From contig JAQTZZ010000012.1 in assembly GCA_028687545.1 (NCBI GenBank), positions 24,315 through 88,314 of the forward strand: a stretch of 64,000 nucleotides of DNA. Direction: 5' to 3'. A model generated the notes under the pieces. That model searched no databases and was not told where the DNA came from. It saw only the letters and a list, made by a program, of their open reading frames with translations. The position numbers were made by a program, and so were the translations under genes. Origin of the DNA: Candidatus Wallbacteria bacterium. GTDB lineage: Bacteria; Muiribacteriota; JAQTZZ01. Position 1 is the stretch's first letter, and the number at the start of each line of letters is the position of its first letter. Shown here in pieces: positions 13,363 through 48,100 of the stretch.

Positions 13363-13375
13363 TATAAACACGGAA

Positions 13376-14092: not shown

Positions 14093-14096
14093 CGGG

Positions 14097-15116: not shown

Positions 15117-15124
15117 TTCACCCC

Positions 15125-18571: not shown

Positions 18572-18752
18572 TATGGCATGAGCTATTTTATTAAAGCTAG
18601 CTAGCCATGTCAAGAAATTTTGCGAATAATCAGGGACTAATAGACTGTATTCAGTATCTAATACGAATTCTCCAACATACCAACTTACAAACATACTAAC
18701 ATACCAACTTCTTGCAGTGCATATGCGATTAAATGAAACTGATTAATGTCAG

Positions 18753-25100: not shown

Positions 25101-25174
25101 AGAAATAGGCATACTGTAATAGTATATAAGTTACTGAAGTCTTTTTCGGCCAATGTATGGATTATGGAGGGAAT

Positions 25175-31133: not shown

Positions 31134-31940
31134 ATGAACAAGGCTACGGTTCTGCTCTTAGCAGTCATTTTTCTTTTTACCCCGGTTTTTTCAGCAGACA
31201 GCACACTAGACACTAAAGTATTCACTTTTATCGATCATTGTTTCGGCTACACGGAAATGCTGTACCAGCAGAAGCCGCAGGCTGAGATCGAGAAAACCCT
31301 CGATTCCCTCAACGCAGAAGCAGACTCGATCTCCGGCGCAATCATCTCAGACCTGGAAAAAGGGGATTCCTCAACCTACGATCAATTCGTGAGCTTTTAC
31401 AACAGGCCTGACATCCACGAATGCCTTGAAAAGCGCGCACCGCTCAACCTGATCGCTGACCGGATCATCGAATTCAAAAAAGCCGGCCGTGAACAGACAG
31501 GCACTCTGTTCCCTGGCTATGGATATGCCGATTCAGGCTATGTCTATCGAAAGGGTGAAGAGCTTTCCAGAGAAGTGGTCAATACTTTCTGGAAACAGAT
31601 CGAAGAGACTTTCGAAAAGAGTACTCGTTACTACATGATGATGGAAGTTTCCCTGACTGCCAATTTCAAAAGCGGAACTGTAAAAAAAGTAGGTTCACCT
31701 GTGAGCATGAATGTCGGCGGCAACATCAAGGAAGTAGTGGAATGCGAAGTCACAATGAAGGAAACCATCCGCACCACCTGCCGCGTGAAATACGAAAACG
31801 ACAAAGTCTGGTTCAGGCTTTACAGGGCAGCCAAGTACCTCGGCGGCCTCTGGATAGGCGACTGGGAAGAATGCGGCCGGACATATGAAATGAAAGAAGA
31901 GCCGACCGGCCTGCCTGTGCTGGAGAATACGACTACATAG
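31134..31940 (+). CDS. secreted hypothetical protein
   Basis: Signal peptide MNKATVLLLAVIFLFTPVFSA. No recognisable domain. Confidence 0.5.
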   Translation: MNKATVLLLAVIFLFTPVFSADSTLDTKVFTFIDHCFGYTEMLYQQKPQAEIEKTLDSLNAEADSISGAIISDLEKGDSSTYDQFVSFYNRPDIHECLEKRAPLNLIADRIIEFKKAGREQTGTLFPGYGYADSGYVYRKGEELSREVVNTFWKQIEETFEKSTRYYMMMEVSLTANFKSGTVKKVGSPVSMNVGGNIKEVVECEVTMKETIRTTCRVKYENDKVWFRLYRAAKYLGGLWIGDWEECGRTYEMKEEPTGLPVLENTTT

Positions 31941-31997
31941 CCATTCTGGATATTTGTTCGGGTTGAATCAAACACCTTTAAATGCTATCTTCTCCTA

Positions 31998-34268
31998 ATG
32001 AAATTACAGGTACTTCCCAACCTGCAGATCGGCATCACTGACCGCTGCAACCTGACCTGCTACATGTGCAGGCCTTCAGTGCTGCAGGACAGGGAAGCCT
32101 GCGGCGTGCCTCTGGCAGGGGACATGCCCAGGCAGGTCTTTGAAGACATCCTGCAGAATTGCCAAGACCAGGATTTCGACAACCTGATGCTCTGCTGGGT
32201 CGGAGAGCCGCTCCTGCATCCTGATTTCCTGCATTTCATAGAAACCATCAGGAATTTTGACAGGAAGCGTAATTTTTTCAGGGTGCTCACTTTCAACACC
32301 AATGGAGTGCTGTTCGATCAGCAGAAAATAGACAGATTCATGGAAATAATCAGGGACTGGAAGAAGAAAGTTTCTGTAGTCTTCTCTCTGGACGCCATGA
32401 GCCAGGAAACATATCTGAGCATCAAAAAGGCCGATCATTTCAAGGCTGCCTTTGACAATGCGAAATATTTCCTGAAGCGCAAAGCTGAACTGGCCATAGG
32501 GCCCAGGCTGCATGCTGCTTTCCAGTTCCTGGTGCTCCCGGAAAACGAGCAGCAAGTCCCTGATTTCTATTTCCATTTCAGAAGCTATCTGGAAAAGCTG
32601 AAGCAGAACTGGTCGCTTGGATTCGAAATCAATCACTCCAGCGACAATTCCATCATAGTCAGGGAAGCCAGGCTTTCGCCTCAGGAGCAGTCCAGCCGCC
32701 GCTTCAATTCAGCCAGGGATCTGCTGTCCAGATTTCCGGCTGACAGGCAGTTTTACCCCGAATCATACGAGATTCTTCCTGATCATGAAATCGTTGATCT
32801 CCCCTTTTACAAAAAAGTCAGGACTGATCTTTATTTATACAGGAACCGGCCCCCCTGCATTTCGCCATTTCTTTATCCCACAGTGCATGTGGACGGCAGC
32901 CTGACTGTCTGCTGCAGGGACAATGGGCTGACATTGCAGCTGGGGAACCTCAGCAGGGATTCGTTTGCCTCCCTCTGGCACGGGGAAGCTGCGGAACGGC
33001 TCAGAATGGCGCATCTGGAGTCTGATCCATCAGGATATCCGCTCTGCTTTTTCTGCGACAATTTCTCCACTTCATTTTTCAGGGACGAATCAGTGGAATC
33101 CGCCTTTGAGAAAAAATTTTCCTATCAGTCTGATCCTGAAAAACTGACTGACAGTGAATATCACCTGCGCCTGGAGAGGGTGTTTGAACTTGCCCCGACT
33201 CTTGCACTTGCCCTTAGATTGCAGGAGTATTATCTGAGCCTGCATCAGGAAGACAGGGTGGAAGCCCTGTATTCCCACCTTCTTTCCCGAAGTTCGGACC
33301 AGAAAGCAATTTCCATCCTGGCAGGTCTCAGATTTAAATCCGGAAAATATGAGGAGACAGTGACTCTGCTGCAGCAGGCAGGGGAACTGAGTGCAGAAGA
33401 CGTGAAAATCCTGACTGAAAGCCTTACCAGGCTGGGAAGGCTTAAGGAAGCCTGCGGAATCGGAGAATGGTTTCTGGAAAACGGATCTGACTCCAGCCTG
33501 CTCATGACACTTGCCGAAATATACAGGCAGCTTGGAGAAACAGACAAGCTGAAACTGGCCTGGTCTGAACTCAGCATGGACGAGACTCTACCGGCTGAAC
33601 TCAGGGAGAGTTTCAAACTGCGCCTGCAGGAATACCTCTCCCTTCAACATCAGAATCTTGGAAATTACGCAGAAGCCCTGCTTCATCTGAAAAAATTGAA
33701 TAAAAGTGATTTTCAGCTCAGGGCTGCTGATATCCTGGAAGCTGCAGGCAAATTTTACCAGGCATACAGGCATCTGAAAAAAATCCAGGACCCGGAAAAT
33801 TTTGAGAGGCGGGCTTCCCTGCTTCTGAAATCAGGCCGCCTGGAAGAGCTGATCGCGCTTTACGAGGGTTTCGGCCAGGCCGGTGAGTATGGCCAGATCA
33901 GGCCGCTGCTTTCGGCTTTATGGCTGACAGGAAAAATTTTCGTTGCAGCCAGGTTCCTCTCCTCACAGCCGGAATTTACGGACGAAGACTACTGCAGAGA
34001 GGCAGGCGGGATATTCCTGAAAGCAGGGCACTTCGCCAGAGCGAGATCCTGTTACCTGCTCCTGGAAAAAAGCAGGGACCTGGAAAAGAAAAGAGAAGCG
34101 CTCAATTCCCAGGTTTTCCTCTACCGAAGCTATGGCAGGAAATTTTCCGAACTGTGCTCAGGGTTAAGGCTGCTTTACCTGCAGCCTCTGGATTGGAACT
34201 CTATCCGTACAGTTCTGTATTCCTTCAGCTCGATTTTCATGAGAAAAAAACTACGCCATGATTCCTAA
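31998..34268 (+). CDS. radical SAM / SPASM-domain enzyme fused to a C-terminal TPR region
   Basis: CNLTCYMC (a CX3CX2C motif) near the N-terminus, then a Cys-rich SPASM/twitch region (CISPFLYPTVHVDGSLTVCC...CFFCDNF), then roughly 350 aa of TPR-like helices. Confidence 0.8.
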   Translation: MKLQVLPNLQIGITDRCNLTCYMCRPSVLQDREACGVPLAGDMPRQVFEDILQNCQDQDFDNLMLCWVGEPLLHPDFLHFIETIRNFDRKRNFFRVLTFNTNGVLFDQQKIDRFMEIIRDWKKKVSVVFSLDAMSQETYLSIKKADHFKAAFDNAKYFLKRKAELAIGPRLHAAFQFLVLPENEQQVPDFYFHFRSYLEKLKQNWSLGFEINHSSDNSIIVREARLSPQEQSSRRFNSARDLLSRFPADRQFYPESYEILPDHEIVDLPFYKKVRTDLYLYRNRPPCISPFLYPTVHVDGSLTVCCRDNGLTLQLGNLSRDSFASLWHGEAAERLRMAHLESDPSGYPLCFFCDNFSTSFFRDESVESAFEKKFSYQSDPEKLTDSEYHLRLERVFELAPTLALALRLQEYYLSLHQEDRVEALYSHLLSRSSDQKAISILAGLRFKSGKYEETVTLLQQAGELSAEDVKILTESLTRLGRLKEACGIGEWFLENGSDSSLLMTLAEIYRQLGETDKLKLAWSELSMDETLPAELRESFKLRLQEYLSLQHQNLGNYAEALLHLKKLNKSDFQLRAADILEAAGKFYQAYRHLKKIQDPENFERRASLLLKSGRLEELIALYEGFGQAGEYGQIRPLLSALWLTGKIFVAARFLSSQPEFTDEDYCREAGGIFLKAGHFARARSCYLLLEKSRDLEKKREALNSQVFLYRSYGRKFSELCSGLRLLYLQPLDWNSIRTVLYSFSSIFMRKKLRHDS

Positions 34269-35396
34269 GGCGCTCTATATTCATTTTCCTTTCTGTGCCA
34301 GAAAATGCCCTTACTGCGACTTTTTCTCAATTCCCAGGCATACCCTGCCCAGGACATAATCCCCAGGTATCTGGAGGCATTGTCAGAAGAGCTTATCCTG
34401 TTCGAGCATACTGCGGTGAATACGGTTTATCTTGGCGGCGGCACCCCCACTCAGCTTTCTCCTGCTGAGCTCAATTCATTGCTCGCATCTGTCCGCAACC
34501 GCCTGCGCGTGGCCGAAGACGCGGAAGTGACTCTGGAAGCCAATCCAGAACATCTGGTCAAGTTCCAGCCTGAAATACTCAGTTCAACTGGAATCAACAG
34601 GCTGTCCCTGGGTCTGCAGCGCAGGGCTCCGGAGATGCTGAAAACCCTGGGCAGAAATGAAAATTCCTTCCAGCTCTGGACAGACAAGTATCATGACCTG
34701 CGCAGCACGGGAATTTCCCTGAGCCTTGACTTCATTTACGGAATCCCGGGTGACACAGTGGAAAAGTCGGTCAGGGAAATCACTGAAATCATCGGCTCCA
34801 CTCCTCCAGACCATTTTTCCCTCTATCTTCTGGAAATCAAGCCAGGTACAGTTTTCCAGGAGAAAATGAACAGTGGGGAACTTAAATTGCCAATAGACGA
34901 AATTCAGGCGGAAATCTATCATGCTCTTAGAGGTCTGCTGGCCTCGCACGGATATCAGCAGTATGAAATCTCCAATTTCGCGAGCCCTGGTCATGAATCA
35001 CGGCATAATCTGGTCTATTTCAACAACGGAGAATATCTGGGCATCGGCTCCGGCGCTTTTGGCCGCATCGACAACCTGCGCTATAAAAACAGTTCAGACC
35101 TCAGCCGCTATCTGTCGTGCCTGCAGGAAGGCAGAAGAGCAATGGAGTTTTCCGAGACTCTGGATGAGACACTGAATGCCAGGGAAACTCTGATGATGGG
35201 ACTGAGAAAGAACGAAGGTGTGTCCCTGAGAGTGCTTTCCACAATAAAGGACAGTCAAAAAGAGTATGTGCTGGAAAGGATTTCCTATTGGAATAAAATG
35301 GGAGTGATCGTGGAAGACGGGGAAAGGATCAGGCTGAATCCTGATTACTTCTTCACCAGCAACGAAGTGATCGGGGATATAATTGACCTCAATTGA
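34257..35396 (+). CDS. hemW: HemW/HemN-like radical SAM protein with an apparent frameshift after the Fe-S motif
   Basis: Frame A (34257..34343) encodes MIPKALYIHFPFCARKCPYCDFFSIPR, the canonical HemW CX3CX2C motif. The rest of the protein (GGGTP, HemN_C-like tail) reads in the -1 frame from 34305. The junction lies in a CCCAGG x3 repeat. Confidence 0.6.
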
Positions 35397-36189
35397 ATCC
35401 TTTTGGAGCGTATTCCACCCGTAATCCATTGAGAAAATAGCAGAAACCTGGAAGATTGCTGAAACGGCAGGCGCTGCCTAAAAGTTCTTCTTCCTGTGTG
35501 AAGCTGGAACCGCCTCTGAGCACTTTTTTCTTCCCTGGAGTCACATTTATCGGATTAAGGACCGGCCTGTTCGTATTCACGATTCTCTGATAATAACTCT
35601 CATCATACCAGTCCTGGCACCATTCATAAACATTCCCGATCATGTCATACAGTCCCCAGGAATTGGGTTTCTTCAACCCCACCTCATGACTGCGTTGCCC
35701 GCTGTTTCCGGCGTACCACATGTATTCCCCATCCATGAACCTGCCCCAGAAAAAACGGAGATCACTGCCTGCTCGGCAGGCGTATTCCCATTCAGCCTCT
35801 GTAGGCAGCCTGAATCTGATCGGCCCCTTGTCATTCAATTTTCCCAGGAACACCTGGCATTCATCCCAGGATACGGTATCCACGGGCAATTTTGGAGACT
35901 TGATCTTGGAAGGGTTGTCTCCCATCACGGCTTGCCATTGTTCCTGGTTAACTTCGTGTTTTCCGAGATAAAATCCCTTGCCGATTCTCACTCTGACCTG
36001 AGGGTGCTCATCAGGAATGCCCTGAAAATCAGGTGAACCCATCGTGAATTCTCCAGGCGGCACATAGACGAACTCCATTTTCACGCTTCCTCCGATAGTG
36101 ATCGAAATAATTTCTCCTGTGGAAGCGGCAAAAGATACTGTTTCAGCTAAAATCAGTCCCAGAAATAAAAACACGCATTTTCCATTCAT
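35389..36189 (-). CDS. secreted FGE-sulfatase (SUMF1/formylglycine-generating-enzyme fold) domain protein
   Basis: Signal peptide, then FRLPTEAEWEYACRAG, GNVYEWCQDWY and VLRGGS motifs. Confidence 0.8.
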   Translation of the reverse strand: MNGKCVFLFLGLILAETVSFAASTGEIISITIGGSVKMEFVYVPPGEFTMGSPDFQGIPDEHPQVRVRIGKGFYLGKHEVNQEQWQAVMGDNPSKIKSPKLPVDTVSWDECQVFLGKLNDKGPIRFRLPTEAEWEYACRAGSDLRFFWGRFMDGEYMWYAGNSGQRSHEVGLKKPNSWGLYDMIGNVYEWCQDWYDESYYQRIVNTNRPVLNPINVTPGKKKVLRGGSSFTQEEELLGSACRFSNLPGFCYFLNGLRVEYAPKGFN

Positions 36190-36330
36190 CACATCAACAT
36201 TATGACCGAGATTCCGCTGCAGAGCAAATGAAGTGCGCAAAGTGCTTGAATTTTGAACGAATTTTATAATCCCGCAATATCTGATATAATCATATCCAGT
36301 AAAAGCAGGACTAAATACAGGGAGCTGACC

Positions 36331-39300
36331 ATGTGTTTCATATCTAGAATTTCAATCGTTCTTCTGATGATCATGCTTACTTCAGTGATGGCAGGTGTGT
36401 CTGTCTCAGGTTCTGCAGGCGGTCTTGCCGGAGCCAGGGTTAAGCTCTGGAAAACGAGTTCAATCATCAAGGAAGCAACTGCGGATTCCAATGGGAATTT
36501 CACTCTAACCGGCATTTCTTCAGGCATTTATATGCTCATGGCTTACAAAGGCGGATATTATCCTGGATCGTTGCAGCTCATTGTAAATGATCAAGACCAG
36601 AACGGAATAATGATCCCAGTCTCCCCGATTCCGCAAACCAGATTGTCCAATCTTGGTATGAATATCTACGGTACTGCAGAAGTCGACCACGACGGAGACG
36701 GCACGCTGGAAGCTGTGATCCCTGGAGATGTGGTAACTGCCAAAGACCCGCAGGGCATACTTTGCGGGCAATTCACTGTTAATCAAGCCGGACGTTACGG
36801 CACAATGCCGATTGTAGGTGACGACCCTGAAACAGCCACAGACGAAGGATGCAACAATGCTGATAATGTCGCTTTATTCGTAAACGGTGCTCATGTTTCA
36901 GGGACTTTGCCCTTCAGTAATATGGAAATCCTGGAAAAGAACATCTCCGCAGCAGCCGGGATGACCAGGTCGATTCCCTTGAAAACCGGCTGGAACCTGG
37001 TGAGCCTTGGACTGATCCCTGATACTGATTCAATTGAAACACTTTTTTCAGGCATTGACAGAATGAGATATGTGATGGGTTTCTTTCGCAATCCTGCCGA
37101 CAACGGCAGTGAGGGATTCCGTACTTTTATGAATCTGCCCGGATTAAAAGCTTACAGTACTCTGACTGATCTTGATGCTTATCATGGATACTGGGTCTAT
37201 ATGACCGGAGATGATACCCTTGAATTGAGCGGAATAAGGGTGGCAGACAACTCGTCTCGCACCATGAGCCAGGGCTGGAACCTGGTGGGTTACTGGCTGG
37301 ATTCCACGAACGCCCTTCCAACGTATCAAGGCCAGGCAAATACGACCATTGATTCCATCTTTGGAAGCACCGCTGTCAGTGGTGAAGTGAAATATGTGAT
37401 GGGATTCTATCGTTTCCCGCCGGACGGAGGAACAGAAGGGTTCCGGACGTTTATGAACACCAGCGCTCTCAACTTCAGTACATTGAAAGAACTGACCCCT
37501 AAATTGGGATACTGGATGTATATGCTGAATGAAGGCCTGCTGCAATACGGACTTACCGCGTCAGCCCTTGCCGCGCCGAGCTGGATAAATGCCAGCGACG
37601 CTGCCTACACCACTGAAGTCAGGGTAACCTGGAATATTGTTACTGGAGCAGCCTGTTACCAGGTTTTCCGTGCGGACTCGTCCACAGGAACATATCTGGC
37701 TCTCTCACCCCAGCTGACTGAAACCAGATATGACGATCCAACCGTGGGGGCAGGGATTTTATATTTTTACAAGGTAAAAGCCATCAATAATTCCGGTGAA
37801 ACAAGCCTGCTCAGTGATTGCGATTCGGGTTACGCGGCTTTGACAACAGCCAACAATCCCCCCTGGATCGCGAGTGTGGAAGTTACCGGTACTTCAGGCG
37901 GGATCACGATCAGTTACAGTCTTTCTGATCCTGACAACGACACCTGCAGCGTGCGGGTTTTTTATTCCATAGACGACGGTTATTCCTATACAGGTTCAGT
38001 GCATGTGGATGGAACTCTGGAAGGGATCCTGCCCGGATCAGGTAAAACAGTTACCTGGAATTCCAATCAAGACATCGCAGACACCCAGAACAGGGTAAGG
38101 GTGAAAATTATCCCGAACGACGGAAAAAATGAAGGCAGTGCCGGGGAATCAGGAATGTTTACAGTCAACAATGGAAAAGAATTGACTTCCATTGTTCTTA
38201 CACCATCCATGATTTATCTGGACCCTGGACATTCCTATGATTTGACTGGCCTCAAGGTAATTGCAGCATATTCGGATGGAAGCAGCAGAGAAGTCACAGG
38301 TGAAACCTGGATTAAAAGCTCAGGTAGAGGCACAATCGAAAATAATATCTATACATCTCCCTCAGATACCGGCAATGTAATGCTGACAGCAAGTTACATG
38401 GAAGGCGCTGTATCAAAAACCTCTGAACTTAGCGTGACCGTAGGGATAAAACCCAGTTCAGGAGCAGTCAAAACAGTGACGCTGACTGGCGAAGTGACTA
38501 TGGATTTCGTCTGGATCCCTGCAGGCAGCTTCAACATGGGCAGCCCGGTGAGTGAAACACTCAGACATTCCGACGAAGGACCGCAGCATACAGTGAACAT
38601 CACAGGTTTCTGGATGAGCAGATATGAGGTTACCCAAGCTCAATGGCAGGGAATCATGGGGAGCAATCCCAGTAATTTTTCAGGTCCCAGTCGTCCAGTA
38701 GATGGACTTTCCTGGAACGACTGCCAGGGTTTTATTACAGCACTCAACAGCAAGGAAATAGGCAGCTTCAGGCTTCCCACCGAAGCGGAATGGGAATATG
38801 CCTGCAGAGCAGGGACAACAACAGCATATTACTGGGGCGGCAGCATGGACATTGATTACTGCTGGTATTATTACGAAACCAGCGGCTATCAGACGCATGA
38901 TGTAGGCCTGAAACTTCCGAATGCCTGGGGTTTATATGACATGAGCGGAAATGTCTGGGAATGGTGCAATGACTGGTATTCTTCCAGTTATTACAGTACA
39001 TCCCCTGCAGACGACCCTCCAGGCCCGGCAAGCGGTCAATTCGGCTACAGGGTTGTGCGGGGTGGCTCATGGAGCTGCTCAGATTTCATCGAGCGTTCTG
39101 CGAATCGGGATTACGTCAGCTTCGACTACCAGGGTCATGACTTCGGAATGAGGCTGTGCTTAAACTACGATGGAACAGGTGCCGCATTACCTTCTTCCCC
39201 TACTGGTCTTACCGCTAGCGGCAAGACAAACAGCAGCTTTACTCTTGCCTGGAATTCAGTGGGCTGTGCAGCCGGTTACAATGTTTTTAAAGGCGGCACT

Positions 39301-41637
39301 TTGTACGCTACGACTGAAACAACCTCAAAGGTAATCACCGGCTTGAGCGCAAATACAAGCTATACTATGGAAGTAACGGCTGTGAATGTAACTGGAGAAA
39401 GCGAAAAGTCTACTGCTCTGATCGTGACCACTAATCCGGACTTACCCGCAGCTCCCAGTGGGCTTTCCTCGAGCAGCATGACAAGCAACAGCTTTACTCT
39501 TGCCTGGAATTCAGTGGACTGTGCTGCCTGTTACAATGTTTATAAAGGCGGCACTTTGTACGCCACGACTGAAACAACCTCAAAGAGCATCACCGGCTTG
39601 AGCGCAAGTACCAGCTATACCATGGAAGTGTCTGCAGTGAATGTGACCGGAGAAGGTGCAAAGTCCCCTGGATTAAGCTTGACCACTAATCCGGACTTAC
39701 CCGCGACTCCTGCCGGTCTTTCCATCTCTGACATGACAACCACGGGTTTCACACTCTCCTGGAATCCAGTTCCCTATGCCGCCGGTTACAAGATATACAT
39801 GGGCGGAACCTTGCATGGTACAACCGAAGCATGCCTTACGAACTTCACAGGACTTTCGGCAGGAACAGGCTATACCATGGAAGTATCTGCTGTGAATTCT
39901 GCTGGTGAAGGTGCAAAGTCTGCAGCGCTCTTCTGGATCACAAATAAAAATGTAGTTTTAAGCGGTGAAGTGAGCATGGAGTTCGTCTGGATTCCGTCCG
40001 GCAGCTTTACAATGGGCAGCCCTGTCTCTGATACGAATAGCTGGACTGACGAACGCCCCCAGCATACAGTGAATATCACACGCGGTTTCTGGCTGGGAAA
40101 ATATAAAGTAACCCAATCACAGTGGCAGGCATTGACCGGCAACAATCCCAGTTGTTACCAGGGTACAAACTACCCGAATTCCGGCAATCGGCCGGTGGAA
40201 CAAGTGTCCTGGACCGACTGCCAGGCTTTCATTGCAACTCTTAACAGCAAAGGAGTCGGAACTTTCCGACTGCCCACTGAGGCTGAATGGGAATACGCCT
40301 GCCGGGCTAAGATGACAACAATCTATTACTGGGGTGCAAATTTTAATGGGAATTACATGTGGTACTCCGAAAACTCCGGTAATCAGACCCACGATGTGGG
40401 CCTGAAACTGCCCAATGCCTGGGGTTTGTATGACATGATCGGAAATCTCTGGGAACTGTGCAATGACTGGTACGACGGTTGTTATTACACCAGTTCTGCT
40501 GCCACTGATCCACAGGGACCAGCAAGTGGAACTACCAGAGTGATGCGGGGAGGTTCGTGGGGTGCAGGAATTGCTGACTGCCGCTCTGCAGCTCGCTGCG
40601 ACAATACTGTTGACGGTAAAACCGTTGACATCGGATTCCGGCTTGCAGGAGACCTGTCAGGTATCCCTGCTCCCACCGGTCTTTTGTCCAGCGACAAGAC
40701 AACCACCAGTTTCACGCTCAACTGGAGTGCAGTGAGTGACGCTGCCAGTTATGTGATATGCAAAGACGGAAGTTTCTATGGCACTTCAGAAACTAACTCC
40801 AAGCTCATTTCCGGACTTACTGCTGGAACAAGTTATTCAATGGAGGTATCTGCCGTGGACGCAGCAGGTAAGGGCTTGAAATCAACGGCACTGAATATAA
40901 CCACGAATAAAATTCTGAATTTGACTGGCGAAGTAAGCATGGAATTTGTCTGGATCCCTGCCGGGAGCTTTGCGATGGGCAGTCCTACTTCTGAGACTGA
41001 CAGCTGCGGTGACGAACGCCCGCAGCACACTGTGAACATTAATCATGGTTACTGGCTGGGAAAATATGAAATCACTCAATCCCAGTGGCAGGCTGTCAGA
41101 GGAAGCAACCCCAGTTATTTTCAGGGAACAAGCTTCCCGAACTCGGGTAACCGGCCAGTAGAACAGGTATCCTGGACTGACTGCCAGACCCTCATTACAT
41201 TACTCAACAGCAAAGGTAGCGGGACCTTCAGATTACCTACTGAAGCGGAATGGGAATATGCCTGCAGGGCTGGTACTGCCAGTGCTTATTACTGGGGGGG
41301 AACTTTGAGCATGAATTACGGCTGGATTGACGATAACAGCAGCTCTCAAACTCATGATGTAGGTCTGAAACTTCCAAATGCCTGGGGTTTGTATGACATG
41401 ATCGGAAATATCCTGGAATGGTGCAATGACTGGTATGGTGATAATTATAAAGACATGCCTGAGATTGTGGATGACCCGCAGGGGGAAACCAGCGGGGGCT
41501 CCCATGTAATGCGTGGCAATTCCTGGTATGATCTCCTCAGTACCAGTCATAGCCGCTCTGCTTATCGATACTATAACTCTGATAATACACATAAAAGTTA
41601 CGGAGCGAGGCTGGTTTACGTTGAAGCTCCCAATTAA
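36331..41637 (+). CDS. giant (1769-aa) secreted multidomain protein with CarbopepD_reg-like, Big_2, four Fn3 and three FGE-sulfatase domains
   Basis: Signal peptide MCFISRISIVLLMIMLTSVMA. Three copies of the FGE hallmarks (FVWIPxGSFxMGSP, RLPTEAEWEYACRA, WEWCNDWY, RGGSW) lie at about 38470..39170, 39950..40650 and 40915..41637. Fn3 repeats separate them. Confidence 0.85.
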   Translation: MCFISRISIVLLMIMLTSVMAGVSVSGSAGGLAGARVKLWKTSSIIKEATADSNGNFTLTGISSGIYMLMAYKGGYYPGSLQLIVNDQDQNGIMIPVSPIPQTRLSNLGMNIYGTAEVDHDGDGTLEAVIPGDVVTAKDPQGILCGQFTVNQAGRYGTMPIVGDDPETATDEGCNNADNVALFVNGAHVSGTLPFSNMEILEKNISAAAGMTRSIPLKTGWNLVSLGLIPDTDSIETLFSGIDRMRYVMGFFRNPADNGSEGFRTFMNLPGLKAYSTLTDLDAYHGYWVYMTGDDTLELSGIRVADNSSRTMSQGWNLVGYWLDSTNALPTYQGQANTTIDSIFGSTAVSGEVKYVMGFYRFPPDGGTEGFRTFMNTSALNFSTLKELTPKLGYWMYMLNEGLLQYGLTASALAAPSWINASDAAYTTEVRVTWNIVTGAACYQVFRADSSTGTYLALSPQLTETRYDDPTVGAGILYFYKVKAINNSGETSLLSDCDSGYAALTTANNPPWIASVEVTGTSGGITISYSLSDPDNDTCSVRVFYSIDDGYSYTGSVHVDGTLEGILPGSGKTVTWNSNQDIADTQNRVRVKIIPNDGKNEGSAGESGMFTVNNGKELTSIVLTPSMIYLDPGHSYDLTGLKVIAAYSDGSSREVTGETWIKSSGRGTIENNIYTSPSDTGNVMLTASYMEGAVSKTSELSVTVGIKPSSGAVKTVTLTGEVTMDFVWIPAGSFNMGSPVSETLRHSDEGPQHTVNITGFWMSRYEVTQAQWQGIMGSNPSNFSGPSRPVDGLSWNDCQGFITALNSKEIGSFRLPTEAEWEYACRAGTTTAYYWGGSMDIDYCWYYYETSGYQTHDVGLKLPNAWGLYDMSGNVWEWCNDWYSSSYYSTSPADDPPGPASGQFGYRVVRGGSWSCSDFIERSANRDYVSFDYQGHDFGMRLCLNYDGTGAALPSSPTGLTASGKTNSSFTLAWNSVGCAAGYNVFKGGTLYATTETTSKVITGLSANTSYTMEVTAVNVTGESEKSTALIVTTNPDLPAAPSGLSSSSMTSNSFTLAWNSVDCAACYNVYKGGTLYATTETTSKSITGLSASTSYTMEVSAVNVTGEGAKSPGLSLTTNPDLPATPAGLSISDMTTTGFTLSWNPVPYAAGYKIYMGGTLHGTTEACLTNFTGLSAGTGYTMEVSAVNSAGEGAKSAALFWITNKNVVLSGEVSMEFVWIPSGSFTMGSPVSDTNSWTDERPQHTVNITRGFWLGKYKVTQSQWQALTGNNPSCYQGTNYPNSGNRPVEQVSWTDCQAFIATLNSKGVGTFRLPTEAEWEYACRAKMTTIYYWGANFNGNYMWYSENSGNQTHDVGLKLPNAWGLYDMIGNLWELCNDWYDGCYYTSSAATDPQGPASGTTRVMRGGSWGAGIADCRSAARCDNTVDGKTVDIGFRLAGDLSGIPAPTGLLSSDKTTTSFTLNWSAVSDAASYVICKDGSFYGTSETNSKLISGLTAGTSYSMEVSAVDAAGKGLKSTALNITTNKILNLTGEVSMEFVWIPAGSFAMGSPTSETDSCGDERPQHTVNINHGYWLGKYEITQSQWQAVRGSNPSYFQGTSFPNSGNRPVEQVSWTDCQTLITLLNSKGSGTFRLPTEAEWEYACRAGTASAYYWGGTLSMNYGWIDDNSSSQTHDVGLKLPNAWGLYDMIGNILEWCNDWYGDNYKDMPEIVDDPQGETSGGSHVMRGNSWYDLLSTSHSRSAYRYYNSDNTHKSYGARLVYVEAPN
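39190..39950 (+). repeat. three tandem 255-nt (85-aa Fn3) repeats inside the giant ORF; copies 1 and 2 are nearly identical at nucleotide level
   Basis: AGCTTTACTCTTGCCTGGAATTCAGTGG..CTGTGC.GCC.GTTACAATGTTT.TAAAGGCGGCACTTTGTACGC.ACGACTGAAACAACCTCAAAG starts at 39235 and again at 39490. A third, diverged copy starts at about 39745. Confidence 0.8.
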
Positions 41638-42724: not shown

Positions 42725-42879
42725 GGGTTATTGTATTCCTGTAAAGTCTTACTGCAGCATTTCTCACATATCAACCTACCAACATACTAACATACTAACT
42801 TCCGGCATAACATTCTTGAAATAGTTATCGTCAATATACTCAGCCGATGCCGCATTCCGCCGCAAAAATAAAGCTTGAA

Positions 42880-42940: not shown

Positions 42941-44914
42941 ATGAAACTGTTGGGGATTTTGCTACTGGTTGCTTTCATTACAACCAGCGCATTCGCCACT
43001 GAATGGATTGCCCTGGATAAAGGGGTAAAAAGTAATTCAGCTTCTAAATCAGTAATCAAGGACACTGAGACAGAAATCATCATCACAGTCAATGTGCCGG
43101 GTTACGCTGCAACTGACCGCAGCATCGACGGCCAGGACTGCATTTCCTTATCTCTTGAGGGCACTTCACCCACGATGACCAAAGGCGACCCGGAATTGAG
43201 AAAAGTCACAGCTTTCGTGGCGCTTCCCGCCTGTTCCTCAGCTACAGCCAGGGTGGTTGACTCCAGTTTTGTAATCAAAGACTCTAATACAATAGTACCC
43301 TCCAGGGGTACGATCATGAGAAATCAGGATCCCAGCAGCGTACCTTACGAGTTTGGTCCTTCCTATAAAGTCAGAGGCTGGTACCCACTCGACAGCGAAC
43401 TCGTAACTGTTTCCGCGCCTTTCATTTTCAGGGATCAGTATGGTGTAAGACTGGAAGTAACTCCATTCCAATATGACAATCAGAAGAAAAAGCTGAAGGT
43501 CTATTCCAATTTTAAGATCGCCATCACTCCAATTGGCATTTCCAAAGGTTTCTTCCGCTCCCAGTCGACATCCGGCGATTTTGAAGGCCTCTATTCCAAG
43601 GTATTCATGAATTACACGGCACCTGTAAGAGTTGCCAAAGGTGCATCAGTCCCAGCGGTGAAGAAGAATCTTCTGATCATTGCCGGCGACACCATGCTCG
43701 ACTCAGTCAAAGCCCTGAAGGACTGGAAAGTCAAATGCGGCTATACAGTCGATGTCGTAAAAGCTTCTGATGCCGGGAAAACCGGTGATGAACTCAAGAC
43801 TTTCCTTCAGAAACAATACGACGCTGGAAAGCTCTGCTTCGTGATCCTGGTCGGCGATGCCGAGCAGATCCCCACCCTTAAGGGTAAACAGGAAAGTGCC
43901 GATTCAGATGCATGCCTGGTCAAACTTGCCGGCAACGACAATGTGCAGGATGCCTTCATCTCCAGAATTTCAGTTGAAAACAAAGATCAGGCAGACTATG
44001 TCATTGCCAAGTCTATAGCCTATGAGCAGAATCCGATGCAGGGAGCAGACGGGGCATGGTACAAGCAGGCTCTCGGTATCGCTTCCTCCCAGGCCGGCGG
44101 CGACGACAACATGATCGACTATGACAGGATTAAGTCTTATAACAAGGAACTGCAGGGCAAACTTGGATTCACCACTATTTTCGAATGCTACGACGGCAGC
44201 GGAGCCAGCACACAGAAAATCTTCGACGCCTGCAAGAGCGGCGTTAGCATCATCAACTACTGCGGCCACGGCGGTGACACTGAGTGGGTCACCACAGGCT
44301 TTTCCAATGACGACTGCGCCAATCTCCAGAACGGTATGAAACTGCCTGTGATCTGGGATGTCGCCTGCGTGAATGGAGCTTTTGTAGGCCAGACCTGCTT
44401 CGCCGAAGCCTGGCTGCGCACAGGCACCAAAGCCAAGCCGGCAGGCACGATCGGCATGGCTGCGGCCACCACCAACATGGCCTGGTATCCACCCTGCATC
44501 TGGCAGAAGGAAATCGTCAATGAACAGATCTGCGGTAAGAAGAACCAGATCGCCCAGGTGATCAACCTGTTCGGAATTCTCAAGACCATGGAGCAGTTCG
44601 GAGTCGAGGATTCCAGCAAAGGCAACCAGGTCAATGAGCAGGTGGTTTACTTCGGCGATGGTACAGTTGCTCTGAGATTTGCCCCTGCCAGAGAAATCCA
44701 GGTGCAGAAATCAAGTGACGCAAACAACGCTCAGATCCAGATCCTGGGCGGCGGAACCGAAGACATTACAGTAACCCTGTATGACGACAAGGGCGAGAAC
44801 ATCGTCACAGTGAAACCGGACGAAACAGGAGTGGTCAGAACCTCCCTGCGCGGTCAGACCATGTTCACAGTGTATGGCCCTGGCATTGTCCCGCTGATCG
44901 ACGAACAGCTGTAA
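42941..44914 (+). CDS. secreted gingipain-like cysteine peptidase (family C25)
   Basis: Signal peptide. LLIIAGD and VILVGDAEQIP blocks are present. The catalytic His and Cys sit in C25 contexts: INYCGHGGDTEW and VIWDVACVNGAF. Confidence 0.75.
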   Translation: MKLLGILLLVAFITTSAFATEWIALDKGVKSNSASKSVIKDTETEIIITVNVPGYAATDRSIDGQDCISLSLEGTSPTMTKGDPELRKVTAFVALPACSSATARVVDSSFVIKDSNTIVPSRGTIMRNQDPSSVPYEFGPSYKVRGWYPLDSELVTVSAPFIFRDQYGVRLEVTPFQYDNQKKKLKVYSNFKIAITPIGISKGFFRSQSTSGDFEGLYSKVFMNYTAPVRVAKGASVPAVKKNLLIIAGDTMLDSVKALKDWKVKCGYTVDVVKASDAGKTGDELKTFLQKQYDAGKLCFVILVGDAEQIPTLKGKQESADSDACLVKLAGNDNVQDAFISRISVENKDQADYVIAKSIAYEQNPMQGADGAWYKQALGIASSQAGGDDNMIDYDRIKSYNKELQGKLGFTTIFECYDGSGASTQKIFDACKSGVSIINYCGHGGDTEWVTTGFSNDDCANLQNGMKLPVIWDVACVNGAFVGQTCFAEAWLRTGTKAKPAGTIGMAAATTNMAWYPPCIWQKEIVNEQICGKKNQIAQVINLFGILKTMEQFGVEDSSKGNQVNEQVVYFGDGTVALRFAPAREIQVQKSSDANNAQIQILGGGTEDITVTLYDDKGENIVTVKPDETGVVRTSLRGQTMFTVYGPGIVPLIDEQL

Positions 44915-45151: not shown

Positions 45152-48100
45152 CTATGGAGTGAAGACCAGCCTCAATCCCAGTCCGCTGTATCGGTCACTA
45201 GGTATGGTATTGCTGCGACCCGCGGACCGGCAGAAAAATACACCGAGGCTCCAGCAGCCACCACGAACCACGCGGAGCGAGCCGGTTACTGGTCCAGTCG
45301 GGTCATTTGCGGGTGATAAACTGTAAAAATCATCTGCATACCAATCCTGACACCACTCCATGACATTTCCGCTCATGTCATACAACTCCCAGGTATTGGG
45401 CAGAATCCCACCCACAACGTTCGTTTGAGCTCCACTATTACTGTCATACCAGCAGTATGAGCCATCAATGATTTCCCCCCAGTAGTAAGCAGAAGTGTTG
45501 CCGGCCCGGCAAGCGTATTCCCATTCCGCTTCAGTGGGTAATCTGAAGGTTCCTATTCCCATGCTGTTGAGAGATGCAATGTATATCTGACAATCATTCC
45601 AGGAAACCTGTTCCACCGGGCGGTTACCGGAATTGGGATAACTCGCGCCTTGAAAATAACTGGGATTGCTGCTGGAGACAGCCAGCCACTGGGCTTGGGT
45701 AACTTCATATTTTCCAAGCCAAAACCCCTGTGTGATGCTTACTGAGTGCTGAGGATTCTCGTCGTAATATCTATACTGCTCTGAATCGGGACTGCTCATT
45801 GTAAAACTGCCTGCTGGAATCCATTTGAATTCCATGGTCACACTACCGGGCAGAGTTAAAGTCATGCTGTCACCTGCGTTATGAACGCCAATTCCTGTTA
45901 TCGTAAGATTTATCTCAGCGGTTTTTGTCACCCCGTTTTCCGTGAAGCTGCAGCCGAGCACTGCGTTTCCTGCGCTGACTGGGGCTGTGTAGGTCAACCC
46001 GCTCAGGCTTCCGCTGCCGCTCTTTATGGACCAGGATGCATTGTTTGTTTTGATGCAGCTGCCGTCACTGTAATAAGCGTTGACAGCCAGATTGCTGAGG
46101 TCATAACTCTGGGAAGCACCCACTGTGATACTGCCAGGGTTAGTGCAGATATACACCGGACCTGAGATTGTCCTTTTTACAGCGATCCCGAGCCAGTCGC
46201 CAGTGCCGGAATGTGTGTAACTGGTGCTGCTGCCTGTCATGACAATCATCTTTTTATCAGAGGACATGACTCCATGAATCGATGGAATTCCTGGTGCTGT
46301 TATGATGCCTTGTGGCGAGATGACAAGGCTGCTTGAGATCTGGCCTGAGTAATTATAATCGTCACTGCCGAGGAGCGAGAGATTGATAAGATTCCCGTAG
46401 CCGTCGATCAGCGCTTGCCCATAATACCATGCAGACCAGCCTGTCGTGAGAACAGCATGGAGCTGCCATGCACCGGCTAAATCTTCTTTGTCGAAACTTC
46501 CCCCGCCTTTCAAGATGGCGCAGAATCCTCTGCTGCTGTCCGAATTGTCAAAAGTGCCTGTCAGCAAAGATTTATCGCCTGACATGACTCCATGAAAAGA
46601 CGGCATATCGCTGCTTGTGACTATTCCGCTCGCGGAAATCCCCATGTTGTAAATACCAACTGGTGTGGTCATTCTACCGGTCGAATCGACTTCATCTGTT
46701 GCATAATAGCAGCCTGTTTCCTGTTGCGGAGTTCCTGTGATAATACCTTGCTCATACCATGTCCCCTGAAGATCTGATAATGAGAATGAAGCTTCTTTCA
46801 GAAATGATATCCACATGCCGTAGCAGTCATCACCGCCACCCTGGGTCTGCACTACAGTCTTCCCGTCCCCTGAGAGAACTCCGTGAACATCGGAATCAGG
46901 ATCTGGAGTAGTGATGTCCCCTGAGCTGTCTAGATTACATATGCCTAACTCTTGATTTGTATAAACGTTCCCATTACTGTCTCGGCCGTCGGTTACTGTG
47001 GCAATACCGCTGCTGGCGAATGACATTGAGCCATAAACCCACATACACTGGTCGGATGCAACTCCAGAGTATATACCAGAGAGATTCCAGTTCCCCTGCA
47101 GGGAACTATTTGAGACCGCCTGAGCAGTGGTTACAGCTAGTGTAGTTGTTTTAGGGCTTGTGCCTCCGCTGTTGACTGCTTCCACTTGAATCGTATACTG
47201 AGTGTGCGGGACGAGTCCGCTGATAAAGGCCAAAAGTCCTGTAATTCCAGTGTGGATAAGAGTCCCGTTTTTATAAATATTGTAAGTGCTTGCATTCTCT
47301 TCAGTATCCCAGCTTACTATGAATCCGCTGCTGGAAATGTTGCGCGATTTCAGATTGACAGGAGCCTGTGGCGCTCCTTCCTCAATCGTCACCGCTACTT
47401 CTGCTGTTCTTGTCACAATGTTCTTGGTGAAGCTGCAGACAAGAGTGGCAGATCCGGAACTGGATGGCGCGGTATAGGTGCTGCCGTTCACACTCCCTTC
47501 TCCGCTTTTCACTGACCAGGATGGATTGTAAGCACCTGCTTCGATGCTTCCGGTGTAGTATGCGGTTACAACGATTGCGGCCAGATTGTAGTTTGCTCCG
47601 ATAGGCACGCTGATAGATGAAGGAAAAACTGTGATGTGATCCAGCACCTTGTCACACCAGTACGCATCCTGTCCGTACTTCAGTATGCCCTGGCCCTGCA
47701 TATAGACCCAGTAGCCATGATTGGGAACGAGCGAGGATAATGTGCTGAAACTGATCGCTGAATTGTTCATGAATGTCCTGAATCCCTCGTTCCCTCCATC
47801 TCCAGGATTACGATAAAATCCCATGATGTATTTCACGATTCCGCTGACTGCGTTCTGATTGAAGACAGAGTCGATCATTGTGCTGGCTTGTGTTTCACTG
47901 GTAGGCAGGCTTATCTGATCATTCAGCCAGTAGCTCACCAGATTCCAGCCAGTGCTGACTGTTGCTTCCTTAGTTGAGGAAATTTCAGTTCCTGAAACTT
48001 CCAGAGTGGCGACATTGTTCATATACACCCAATAGCCGTGATATCCGTCCATGGTCAAGAGAGTGGAGAAGTCCCGTACATTATCGATATTCATATAGGT

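Follow-up and report, generated by a model that had tools for sequence, protein, structure and literature searches.

Organization of the tri-FGE locus

The DNA analyzed here is a 64-kb stretch (the window) from Candidatus Wallbacteria bacterium, in which a gene on the forward strand encodes a protein with three FGE-like domains, referred to below as the tri-FGE protein (Table 1). The product of the ORF at 36331-41637 matched an nr entry (P0001) at 100% identity and 100% coverage; this entry is named 'SUMF1/EgtB/PvdO family nonheme iron enzyme [Candidatus Wallbacteria bacterium]'. The ORF agrees with the first-pass annotation, although its true size is 1768 aa rather than 1769 aa, the stop codon having been counted in the latter figure. 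The tri-FGE gene is probably monocistronic, since it is flanked by one divergent and one convergent gene. The promoter-like site upstream is a consensus match only and was not enriched over shuffles. The signal peptide has no lipobox and no Cys at the cleavage region.

Table 1. Features of the tri-FGE gene, its product and its FGE-like paralogues, in window coordinates
Feature	Position	Strand	Basis or remark
Small exported single-domain FGE-like paralogue, divergent	35389..36240	-	Cu-ligand positions Q / L
Promoter-like site TTTATA-16-TATAAT with TG	36263..36290	+	~40 nt upstream of tri-FGE gene start codon
Shine-Dalgarno-like GGGAG	36320..36324	+	6 nt 5' of ATG; read from sequence
Coding sequence	36331..41637	+	1768 aa + stop; ATG 36331, stop 41635-41637
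Sec-type signal peptide MCFISRISIVLLMIMLTSVMA/GV	36331..36393	+	By eye from translation
Prealbumin/CarboxypepD_reg-like beta-sandwich, aa 31-89	36421..36597	+	Pfam E 4.8e-7, sub-threshold
Segment aa 105-205, part of mobile N-terminal cassette	36643..36945	+	Co-conservation with flanking modules
U1, first 'GWNLVS...HGYWVYM' module, aa 211-300	36961..37230	+	Tandem repeat with U2
U2, second 'GWNLVG...GYWMYM' module, aa 305-410	37243..37560	+	Tandem repeat with U1
Divergent Fn3-like domain, aa 416-491	37576..37803	+	HMM of the protein's four Fn3 copies
Beta-sandwich domain, aa ~510-612	37858..38166	+	AF2 all-beta, low confidence; homologous segment in P0005
Ig-like beta-sandwich, aa ~617-707 (earlier 'Big_2')	38179..38451	+	AF2 pLDDT 92-97
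FGE-like (CLec-fold) domain 1, aa 717-948	38479..39174	+	Pfam; Cu-ligand positions C / E
Copy 1 VR-equivalent segment (YRVVRGGSW...GMRL), predicted ligand-binding face	39046..39159	+	Comparison with DGR relatives
Three tandem Fn3, aa 956-1036, 1041-1121, 1126-1206	39196..39948	+	Pfam
FGE-like domain 2, aa 1209-1445	39955..40665	+	Pfam; Cu-ligand positions A / C
Copy 2 VR-equivalent segment (TRVMRGGSW...GFRLA)	40534..40647	+	Comparison with DGR relatives
Fourth Fn3, aa 1447-1528	40669..40914	+	Pfam
FGE-like domain 3, aa 1530-1767, extreme C-terminus	40918..41631	+	Pfam; Cu-ligand positions L / S
Copy 3 VR-equivalent segment (SHVMRGNSW...GARLVY)	41500..41619	+	Comparison with DGR relatives
Paralogue P0004, 1062 aa, one FGE-like domain (L / C)	45152..48340	-	

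The Pfam scan assigned PF03781 (FGE-sulfatase) to three stretches of the protein (E 1.4e-138, 461 bits vs a cut-off of 23.3), in accordance with the three domains recognized from motifs in the first-pass annotation. Each of the motifs quoted there is present three times in the translation, starting at aa 726, 1218, and 1539 for FVWIP, at aa 814, 1313, and 1634 for RLPTEAEWEYACRA, at aa 868, 1366, and 1687 for LYDMxGN, and at aa 910, 1406, and 1728 for RG[GN]SW. The three copies are 60-64% identical in pairwise comparison. Four fn3 stretches were found (E 8.3e-37), and the layout described earlier was recovered, with three Fn3 domains separating FGE copies 1 and 2 and a single one separating copies 2 and 3. 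The first two tandem Fn3 domains share 83% identity at the DNA level.

N-terminal stalk and paralogous proteins

The part of the protein that precedes the first FGE-like domain is a string of smaller modules. The CarbopepD_reg-like domain proposed at its start was seen as a match (30.5 bits, E 4.8e-7) but falls short of the Pfam gathering cut-off of 32.3 bits. The following segment (aa 105-205) had no Pfam match at E ≤ 1 and is co-conserved with its flanking modules in P0005, P0011, P0012, and P0014. The two GWNLV...GYW[VM]YM modules, U1 and U2, proved to be a genuine tandem repeat, again with no Pfam match even at E ≤ 1; the U1-U2 tandem may represent a new domain fold and a common attachment or targeting cassette. 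Two domains were absent from the earlier domain list, namely a fifth, Fn3-like domain at aa 416-491, which aligns with the four Fn3 copies and has an all-beta, low-confidence AF2 model, and the beta-sandwich at aa ~510-612, for which Pfam matches were weak only. The Big_2 domain (PF02368) suggested for aa ~610-705 was not recovered by Pfam at E ≤ 1, and Big_3 appeared instead at E 0.065. A Foldseek search with the whole aa 408-715 model matched tandem FnIII/Ig chains. The Ig-like unit (aa ~617-707) occurs as many repeats in P0003 and as a linker in P0002, and the N-terminal cassette is common to the tri-FGE protein and the secreted M6 metalloproteases P0005 and P0006.

Two FGE-like paralogues are encoded in the window itself. 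In P0004, a signal peptide is followed by U1-U2, an Ig-like domain, Fn3, unassigned repeats, a second Ig-like domain, and one FGE-like domain. Copy-by-copy orthology between P0001 and P0002 was rejected, all pairs of their FGE-like copies being 58-70% identical. The tri-FGE protein is best read as a member of a Wallbacteria-specific paralogous family. Neither the tri-FGE protein nor the two FGE-like paralogues in the window had a defence-system match in PADLOC, and membership in a known anti-phage defence or conflict system was rejected on this basis; the generic kinase domain of an upstream Ser/Thr kinase alone matches kinase-containing PADLOC models.

Distribution of the multi-FGE architecture

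An exhaustive profile search retrieved 220,523 cluster representatives at E ≤ 1e-3, and the best 150 of these all had at least 3 matched stretches, with up to 11. Near-full-length copies, counted for 149 of the best 150, numbered 3 in 73 proteins, 4 in 38, 5 in 15, 6 in 10, and 7-11 in 5, and Pfam independently placed 4-6 PF03781 copies in seven of the best 150. Three-domain proteins of the CLec/FGE type are also already present in the DGR literature, which describes one DGR target in which three FGE-sulfatase domains stand in tandem (Wu et al., 2018, PMC5758913) and, as the DGR 4/5 targets of Thiohalocapsa PB-PSB1, vWA proteins that carry three CLec domains in tandem (PMC10907252). The tri-FGE architecture, which the first-pass annotation had called unusual, is ordinary, because hundreds of similar multi-copy proteins exist. 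With a common architecture and precedent in the literature, the tri-FGE protein alone opens no new question.

The multi-FGE arrays from metagenomes, such as P0025 (9 copies), P0026 (11 copies), P0030 from Gemmatimonadota (6 copies), and the P0029 cluster from Verrucomicrobiota (6 copies), resemble the tri-FGE protein in having at least 3 PF03781 copies, all without the Cys pair of FGE, and in bearing the same generic annotation; the last copy lies at the extreme C-terminus in 97 of the 149 proteins, as it does here. In contrast to the tri-FGE protein, they are mostly near-pure arrays in which the linkers are short (median 55 aa). Fn3 domains between copies were detected in 0 of the 149 with an HMM built from the tri-FGE protein's own Fn3 copies, and the U1-U2 cassette was found in only one, the Wallbacteria paralogue P0002. 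The multi-VR DGR targets (PMC5758913, PMC10907252) likewise carry three FGE-type CLec domains per polypeptide, and one PB-PSB1 target has a signal peptide, as the tri-FGE protein has (PMC10907252). However, these targets are diversified by a linked DGR, for which no counterpart was found in the 64 kb around the tri-FGE gene, and the spacing of the domains by Fn3 is a feature of the tri-FGE protein. The PB-PSB1 targets, moreover, have an N-terminal vWA domain and belong to MoxR ternary conflict systems, whereas the tri-FGE protein is without vWA, MoxR, or STAND.

Copper-ligand positions of the FGE-like domains

Genuine FGE was recognized by the presence of both Cu(I)-ligand cysteines (C336/C341 in the human enzyme and C269/C274 in T. 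curvata, within the motif GGSxxCxxxxC). When these columns were read out from HMMER alignments, the full pair, whose conservation in each copy the first-pass annotation had proposed to check, was found in 0 of the 3 copies (C/E, A/C, and L/S in copies 1 to 3 vs C/C in the T. curvata FGE). Among 721 domain instances, comprising the multi-FGE proteins, the Wallbacteria paralogues, and three reference fragments, both cysteines occurred in only 2, one of which is the FGE reference. The human (SUMF1), T. curvata, and S. coelicolor FGEs belong to the same PF03781 fold family and share the core motifs RLPTEAEWE and GNVWEW with the tri-FGE copies. The Cys pair is incomplete in every tri-FGE copy, however, and the tri-FGE protein differs from these enzymes further in being exported and multi-domain. 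In agreement with the earlier statement that no sulfatase genes are nearby, PF00884 was absent from the ~45 ORFs scanned across the 64-kb window.

Relationship to DGR variable proteins

The best PDB match of the FGE-like domains was TvpA from Treponema denticola (2y3c), a DGR variable protein that binds ligands and is non-catalytic, with E 5.8e-32 for copy 1 vs about 4e-26 for true FGEs. TvpA has the scaffold motifs RGGSW ... C ... GFRLA in common with the tri-FGE copies and also lacks the first Cu-ligand Cys (G/C). By similarity to DGR targets, the FGE-type CLec domains are the closest to known variable proteins. In DGR relatives, the variable positions correspond to the segment in which the three copies diverge, and the last tri-FGE copy, as in TvpA-type variable proteins, stands at the C-terminus of the ORF. 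One related locus, L013, is a complete DGR in which a GH10 xylanase, whose FGE-like domain contains the VR, is followed by bAvd, RT, and TR; the FGE-like domain sits where a substrate-binding module would be. The scaffold of this target is 55-62% identical to the Wallbacteria copies, the range among the Wallbacteria copies themselves being 58-70%.

The VR footprint of L013 and of a second related locus with a TR/VR pair, L059, coincides with a hypervariable segment among eight Wallbacteria copies, in which the majority-residue fraction is 0.44 inside and 0.64 outside the footprint. At the nucleotide level, the three tri-FGE copies are 41-47% identical in the footprint vs 70-71% before it. Fast divergence of a surface loop region would also be expected under simple relaxed constraint.

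A DGR acting in cis was rejected. Neither an RT (RVT_1) nor an Avd (bAvd) was detected in the ORFs scanned across the 64 kb, while both were detected in the control L013. A template repeat (TR), which differs from its VR almost only at template adenines, was found within the 64 kb neither by a repeat search, nor by blastn-short with five FGE C-termini, nor by an adenine-mismatch self-blast scan; in an 'identical-or-A' scan of the 64 kb, the best non-self site was at most 72% compatible vs 99% for positive controls. The TR/VR searches did return L013, L022, and L059, which served as DGR positive controls.

Predicted function of the tri-FGE protein

Based on these patterns of homology and variability, we consider the tri-FGE gene product to be, with a probability of about 0.6, an exported, non-enzymatic, multivalent binding protein. 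A three-headed binder is the most likely reading because the FGE-fold domains are without the copper-binding cysteines of the enzyme, and it is further supported by the signal peptide and the beads-on-a-string run of Ig/Fn3-like domains. Of the binding or oxidizing function put forward in the first-pass annotation, binding is accordingly the better supported by homology and variability. The three paralogous TvpA-type FGE-fold (C-type-lectin-like) domains would act as ligand-binding heads, which the Fn3 spacers would keep apart and which would be borne on the N-terminal beta-sandwich stalk, with modules also present in the secreted M6 metalloproteases of Wallbacteria. Every head retains the scaffold (RLPTEAEWEYACRA, WGLYDMxGNxWEWCNDWY, RGGSW, RSAxR, GxRL) and would expose its own set of residues on the face that DGRs hypermutate in related proteins. 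Since these residues differ from head to head, the protein is predicted to recognize as many as three different ligands, or a single one with high avidity. We infer the nature of the ligands, for which glycans, particles, and surface molecules of other cells are candidates, as well as the final localization. The diversity of the heads would be hard-wired through gene and domain duplication and divergence, rather than generated by an active DGR in the window.

Precedents for the FGE fold as a binding scaffold are TvpA (PMC5758913) and the T6SS immunity protein Tsi3 (bioRxiv 10.1101/2021.05.21.445229). Tsi3 and pFGE/SUMF2 are likewise examples of the fold as a non-enzymatic protein-binding scaffold, and SUMF2 is a weak PDB match to the tri-FGE copies; in contrast to these single-domain proteins, the tri-FGE protein is multi-domain and has no T6SS context. 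In many bacteria, non-catalytic FGE-fold domains rank among the modules that have expanded the most and are understood the least; more than 100 copies, of unclear function, were reported for Ca. Thiomargarita magnifica (bioRxiv 10.1101/2022.02.16.480423). The tri-FGE protein adds a clear-cut case from a diderm phylum without cultured members, with three domains arrayed on an exported stalk, and the fact that its copies differ exactly at the sites mutated by DGRs in its relatives supports the general view that this subfamily is not enzymatic but a programmable scaffold for binding.

Alternative interpretations

According to one alternative, the tri-FGE protein is a multi-domain redox enzyme, either PvdO-like or with a novel metal site, that oxidizes an extracellular substrate, as its NCBI name and the oxidizing function suggested earlier would imply. 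PvdO was the top NCBIfam match (E 2.4e-78), and PvdO itself is without the FGE Cys pair, although NCBIfam calls it a dehydrogenase, so loss of the pair is no proof of the loss of all catalysis. However, the PvdO score of 263 bits, summed over 4 stretches, is far under the cut-off of 500, and there are no pyoverdine genes among the ORFs scanned in the 64-kb window; membership in the PvdO family was rejected. The EgtB, SenA, and OvoA families were rejected as well, with scores of 145.6 vs a cut-off of 360, 92.3 vs 420, and 48.5 vs 400, respectively, and with no DinB-type iron-binding domain in the Pfam scan of the tri-FGE protein. Both copper ligands never occur together in any copy, and among the paralogues conservation of the domain is lowest at the would-be active-site residues, contrary to what would be predicted for a shared catalytic site. 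An oxidizing function is thus not upheld, and we regard a redox enzyme as unlikely.

A second alternative is that the protein is a structural component of the envelope (PorK/GldK/GldJ-like, S-layer, or sheath) that self-assembles through its FGE-fold domains. GldK/PorK was the second NCBIfam match (E 4.2e-64), PorK structures were matched in the PDB, S-layer assembly domains were among the Foldseek matches of the Ig-like string (ranks 29 and 34), and 1.3 kb downstream of the tri-FGE gene there is a Peptidase_C25 gene whose product weakly resembles PorU. Against this, the GldK score was 217.4 bits vs a cut-off of 350, the GldJ score 47.9 vs 458, and the PorU similarity 47 bits vs 420; the PorK match in the PDB (about E 1e-14) was weaker than those of TvpA or FGE, and a self-assembling lattice is not expected to have hypervariable heads. 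PorK/GldK and GldJ membership was rejected given these sub-threshold scores and a signal peptide that is not of the lipoprotein type, with no lipoprotein Cys after it. An envelope component is consequently improbable. As to the cell-surface location claimed earlier, the Sec signal peptide bears out export, whereas a recognizable surface-anchor or outer-membrane translocation signal was not seen. Wallbacteria are reported as diderms (bioRxiv 10.1101/2021.05.31.446380), and in a diderm host the tri-FGE protein, with no such anchor or export signal, might stay periplasmic.

The variability of the heads could also be explained if the tri-FGE protein were an active DGR target whose template(s) and RT lie elsewhere in the genome, its loops being rewritten by mutagenic retrohoming. 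TvpA as the best PDB match and the described multi-VR targets with three FGE/CLec domains (PMC5758913, PMC10907252) are consistent with this, remote targets are known (PMC5758913), and copy 3 terminates the ORF, the usual place of VRs. Clean TR/VR pairs at exactly the equivalent position were found in 3 of 80 related genome loci, and L013 is a complete DGR; no Wallbacteria genome was present in these best 80 loci of the genome-contig scan. At the variable sites, pyrimidine-ending codons were found at 22 of 26 informative sites vs an expectation of 16.5 (p = 0.017), and 4 of 58 sites had a residue from outside the NNC repertoire vs a 15% background (p = 0.047), both signals being marginal and uncorrected for multiple testing. 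In contrast to the loci of TvpA-type DGR proteins, the 64-kb window has no RT or Avd among its scanned ORFs and no TR-like copy by four methods. The three VR-equivalent segments differ by indels and by synonymous codons in the scaffold, which sets them apart from TvpA-type proteins, and where their amino acids are identical the codon is shared in only 31-40% of cases; one TR therefore cannot serve all three segments, and three separate templates would be needed. TvpA is, in addition, a single-domain lipoprotein, whereas the tri-FGE protein is a 1768-aa array with Fn3 spacers. An active remote DGR is very unlikely in our view. The broader proposition that all three heads serve, or served until recently, as DGR variable regions with templates elsewhere in the Wallbacteria genome is likewise unlikely. 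If it were true, the Wallbacteria family (at least four proteins and eight domains with a shared cassette) would amount to a repertoire of antibody-like heads fixed in the germline, which would descend from an ancestor diversified by a DGR and would have been put to new use on secreted proteins.

The reading as a genuine formylglycine-generating enzyme acting in sulfatase maturation, despite the very high score at which PF03781 was assigned, is effectively refuted by the missing copper ligands in all three copies of this exported, multi-domain protein and by the window without a sulfatase gene, as the first-pass annotation had anticipated. 'Nonheme iron enzyme', the name given by NCBI, is likely to mislead when applied to the whole class of such FGE-fold proteins.

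Organization of the tri-FGE protein

On the plus strand, a single long open reading frame spans window positions 36253-41637. The likely start of the tri-FGE gene is the ATG at 36331, with GGGAG six bases before it, and the product has 1768 aa; the 1769 aa of the first-pass annotation had included the stop codon. A sigma-70-like site at 36263-36290, a consensus match only, lies upstream. As the neighboring genes run divergently on the upstream side and convergently on the downstream side, the tri-FGE gene is probably monocistronic.

Pfam assigned PF03781 (FGE-sulfatase) to three stretches of the protein (E = 1.4e-138, 461 bits versus a cut-off of 23.3), so the three FGE domains originally proposed stand, and each of the hallmark motifs quoted for them is present three times. 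The copies share 60-64% pairwise identity. Four fn3 stretches (E = 8.3e-37) follow the described layout, with three Fn3 domains between copies 1 and 2 and one between copies 2 and 3. In the DNA, the Fn3 units are a family of 255-nt repeats; the 83% identity of units 1 and 2 (window 39187-39696), versus about 70% for the FGE copies, points to a recent duplication within the spacer.

The N-terminal assignments fared unevenly. The CarboxypepD_reg-like domain gave a weak match (E = 4.8e-7) that fell below the Pfam cut-off (30.5 bits versus 32.3). The two modules of unknown fold, U1 and U2 (aa 211-300 and 305-410), form a true tandem repeat (GWNLV...GYWxYM) with no Pfam match. No Big_2 domain was assigned by Pfam at E <= 1; in the AlphaFold2 model, aa 408-715 fold as three beta-sandwiches in succession, the last of them (aa ~617-707) very confident (pLDDT 92-97), and Foldseek matched this model to tandem FnIII/Ig strings.

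The prealbumin-like domain, an unassigned segment, U1, and U2 make up an N-terminal cassette (residues ~24-442). The block recurs, internally or at the C-terminus, in two Wallbacteria M6 metalloproteases (P0005 and P0006) and, in more distant versions, in large proteins with T9SS C-terminal domains (P0011 and P0014). U1-U2 are found without the rest of the cassette in the proteins P0003 and P0004 and in the small cohesin-domain protein P0021.

Coordinates, copper-ligand positions, and variable residues of FGE-like domains and of the L013 retroelement
Feature	Sequence	Position	Strand	Cu-ligand positions 1/2	Variable residues
FGE-like copy 1	tri-FGE protein	aa 717-948		C / E	SCSDFIE / DYVSFDYQGHDF
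FGE-like copy 2	tri-FGE protein	aa 1209-1445		A / C	GAGIADC / CDNTVDGKTVDI
FGE-like copy 3	tri-FGE protein	aa 1530-1767		L / S	YDLLSTSHS / YYNSDNTHKSY
Small exported single-domain FGE-like protein, divergent neighbor of tri-FGE gene	window	35389-36240	minus	Q / L	
P0004, 1062-aa paralogue (U1-U2, Ig-like, Fn3, one FGE-like domain)	window	45152-48340	minus	L / C	
TvpA	PDB 2y3c			G / C	
Target gene, GH10 xylanase with C-terminal FGE-like CLec domain	L013	8207-10747			
VR	L013	10624-10742			
bAvd	L013	10847-11194			
RT	L013	11191-12324			
TR	L013	12262-12380			

Loss of the copper site

The positions of the Cu(I)-ligand cysteines of FGE (C269/C274 in the T. curvata enzyme and C336/C341 in the human enzyme) were located by HMMER alignments to both enzymes and by a column read-out covering all domains. 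The complete pair, whose conservation the first-pass annotation had marked for checking, is present in none of the three copies. Among 721 domain instances from multi-FGE proteins, Wallbacteria paralogues, and three reference fragments, both cysteines were found in two, one of which is the FGE reference itself. Judged by these residues, the three copies are very probably not FGEs. Pfam detected no DinB-type iron domain in the tri-FGE protein, and the NCBIfam scores were all well below cut-off for PvdO (263 bits versus 500), GldK (217 versus 350), EgtB (146 versus 360), SenA (92 versus 420), OvoA (48 versus 400), and GldJ (48 versus 458), and these identities were rejected. NCBI nr contains an identical protein, from a Candidatus Wallbacteria MAG (88,314-nt contig), under the name 'SUMF1/EgtB/PvdO family nonheme iron enzyme', a label that is probably misleading.

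Relationship to TvpA and to DGR-diversified modules

Among relatives of solved structure, the best match is TvpA (2y3c), the variable protein of the Treponema denticola diversity-generating retroelement (DGR), which serves in binding and not in catalysis; it matched copy 1 with E = 5.8e-32 compared to about 4e-26 for true FGEs. The window and 80 related genome loci were searched by self-blast for template repeat/variable region (TR/VR) pairs whose mismatches fall on the adenines of one copy in at least 80% of cases. Clean pairs were obtained in three of the 80 loci (L013, L022, and L059), and each time the VR lies at the C-terminal end of an FGE-like domain. Locus L013 (CAXXMV010000001.1, bacterium MAG) holds a complete DGR at 8207-12380 in the order target, bAvd, RT, TR; its TR and VR differ by 25 mismatches, 96% on template adenines, and the variable sites in the TR are AAC codons. 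The FGE-like module of its target occupies the position of a carbohydrate-binding module on a secreted glycoside hydrolase, and such a hypermutable 'binding module' is noteworthy by itself. Scaffold identity between L013 and the Wallbacteria copies is 55-62%, against only 58-70% among those copies themselves, which places the Wallbacteria domains in the same subfamily as a genuine binding module diversified by a DGR.

In L013 and L059, the VR footprint (YRVLRGGSW - x6 - C - RSAxR - x11 - GFRL) falls on the very segment that is hypervariable across eight Wallbacteria copies, in which the RGGSW, RSAxR, and GxRL scaffold residues are constant. The majority-residue fraction in these copies is 0.44 within the footprint and 0.64 outside, and nucleotide identity among copies 1-3 is 41-47% after RGGSW versus 70-71% before. 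The variable residues of the three heads are unlike in character, consistent with a difference in specificity.

No DGR acts within the window or through one shared template. Neither RT nor Avd was found in any open reading frame scanned there, and no TR for copies 1-3 was found in the window by repeat search, blastn-short, or adenine-mismatch scan. A sliding 'identical-or-A' compatibility scan, which scored 118/119 and 135/137 on positive controls, gave a best non-self window site at most 72% compatible, within the random tail. Homogenization by one TR is excluded, since indels distinguish the three VR-equivalent segments, and their identical amino acids are encoded by the same codon in only 31-40% of cases. 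The heads might instead be variable regions of a remote or fossil DGR, preserved as a germline-fixed repertoire, which we consider improbable. Pyrimidine-ending codons occupy 22 of 26 informative variable sites versus 16.5 expected (p = 0.017), and residues outside the NNC repertoire 4 of 58 sites versus a 15% background (p = 0.047); these signals are regarded as marginal and too weak for claiming a DGR imprint. Duplication and divergence, rather than retrohoming, would be the source of head diversity.

Distribution of multi-FGE arrays

A profile of the three copies, searched against 1.84 billion cluster representatives, matched 220,523 proteins at E <= 1e-3 and 67,588 at E <= 1e-30. The best 150 of the 220,523 all had at least three matched stretches, with a maximum of 11 in a 4448-aa protein. 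When 149 of these 150 were re-annotated with the same profile, three near-full-length copies were counted in 73, four in 38, five in 15, six in 10, and 7-11 in five; in seven re-annotated proteins, Pfam independently gave 4-6 PF03781 copies. The named multi-FGE proteins belong to MAGs of Verrucomicrobiota and Gemmatimonadota and bear the same generic annotation as the tri-FGE protein; among the phyla with close relatives, single- or multi-copy, are Planctomycetota, Bacteroidota, Lentisphaerota, Cloacimonadota, and Desulfobacterota. Precedents have been published: a DGR target in which three FGE-sulfatase domains stand in tandem (PMC5758913), and vWA proteins, one with a signal peptide, that have three CLec domains in tandem (PMC10907252). 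The architecture, real and correctly located in the first-pass annotation, is thus common rather than unusual as stated there.

The 1607-aa Wallbacteria protein P0002 has the same N-terminal cassette and three FGE-like copies, but these are separated by Ig-like domains instead of Fn3. An HMM built from the tri-FGE protein's own Fn3 copies found no Fn3 between FGE copies in any of the 149 proteins, whose median linker is 55 aa. By these comparisons, the Fn3 spacing and the Wallbacteria-specific N-terminal cassette are what is peculiar to the tri-FGE protein. Based on these results, we concluded that it belongs to a known, functionally uncharacterized class of non-catalytic, TvpA-type FGE-fold arrays.

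Proposed role and localization

The signal peptide (MCFISRISIVLLMIMLTSVMA|GV, no lipobox) suggests Sec export. A stalk of beta-sandwich modules would bear three lectin-like heads, with the Fn3 domains as spacers. As each head retains the FGE/CLec scaffold but exposes a different loop surface, we infer a multivalent or multispecific binder, with glycans, particles, or foreign cell surfaces as candidate ligands. According to a published report (bioRxiv 10.1101/2021.05.31.446380), Wallbacteria are diderm Terrabacteria that possess OmpM, and the protein has no recognizable signal for outer-membrane export or anchoring; it may therefore be retained in the periplasm.

Genomic surroundings

The presence of the rpsB-tsf-pyrH-frr-uppS-cdsA cluster marks the window as chromosomal. 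Other neighbors of the tri-FGE gene encode a Peptidase_C25, an EamA transporter, two radical-SAM proteins, and a GAF-TPR-Ser/Thr kinase. Sulfatase PF00884 was absent from every open reading frame scanned in the window, in agreement with the earlier remark that no sulfatase genes are nearby, and PADLOC defence models matched neither the tri-FGE protein nor its FGE-like neighbors.

Window proteases include an M42 aminopeptidase (5948-7042), a C11 clostripain-like protease (25157-26491), an MXAN_6640-family HExxH metalloprotease (26633-28381), and a C25 gingipain-like protease with propeptide (42941-44914). This protease-rich neighborhood and the M6 proteases sharing modules with the tri-FGE protein hint at a proteolytic lifestyle. 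An 8-nt periodic motif, AACATAC(C/T)AAC, forms two intergenic arrays of three units each (18674-18708 and 42773-42799), one upstream of the Peptidase_C25 gene and the other between cdsA and a HEAT-repeat gene; its six matches in the window compare with 0.84 expected, and six were reached in 0 of 100 shuffles. The arrays may bind a regulator.

The 756-aa radical-SAM/SPASM protein (within 31134-34268), with a TPR-like C-terminal part, is flanked by a 268-aa open reading frame without family match before it and a HemW-like radical-SAM protein after it. Its best NCBIfam models, spiro-SPASM and metalloenzyme maturases, all scored far below cut-off, and an anaerobic sulfatase maturase was ruled out by score; the protein is a possible maturase of peptides or cofactors. 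A 1765-aa open reading frame (8074-13371, minus), whose sole Pfam match is PMT_2 (dolichyl-phosphate-mannose-type glycosyltransferase domain) in two stretches, lies directly downstream of nucleotidyl transferase, GHMP kinase, and GT2 genes (13376-15835) and has the appearance of a giant membrane glycosyltransferase belonging to a cluster for glycan synthesis. Two successive ~1160-aa open reading frames with a 4-nt overlap (51889-58862), the first HEAT/TPR-repeat-rich and the second nearly without annotation (one weak TPR match), probably form an operon encoding giant repeat proteins. Within the open reading frame 58942-60933 (minus; 663 aa, no Pfam or NCBIfam match), an 80-nt direct repeat (59338-59417 and 59938-60017, 80% identity at a distance of 600 nt) points to internal duplication of a ~200-aa domain of unassigned family.
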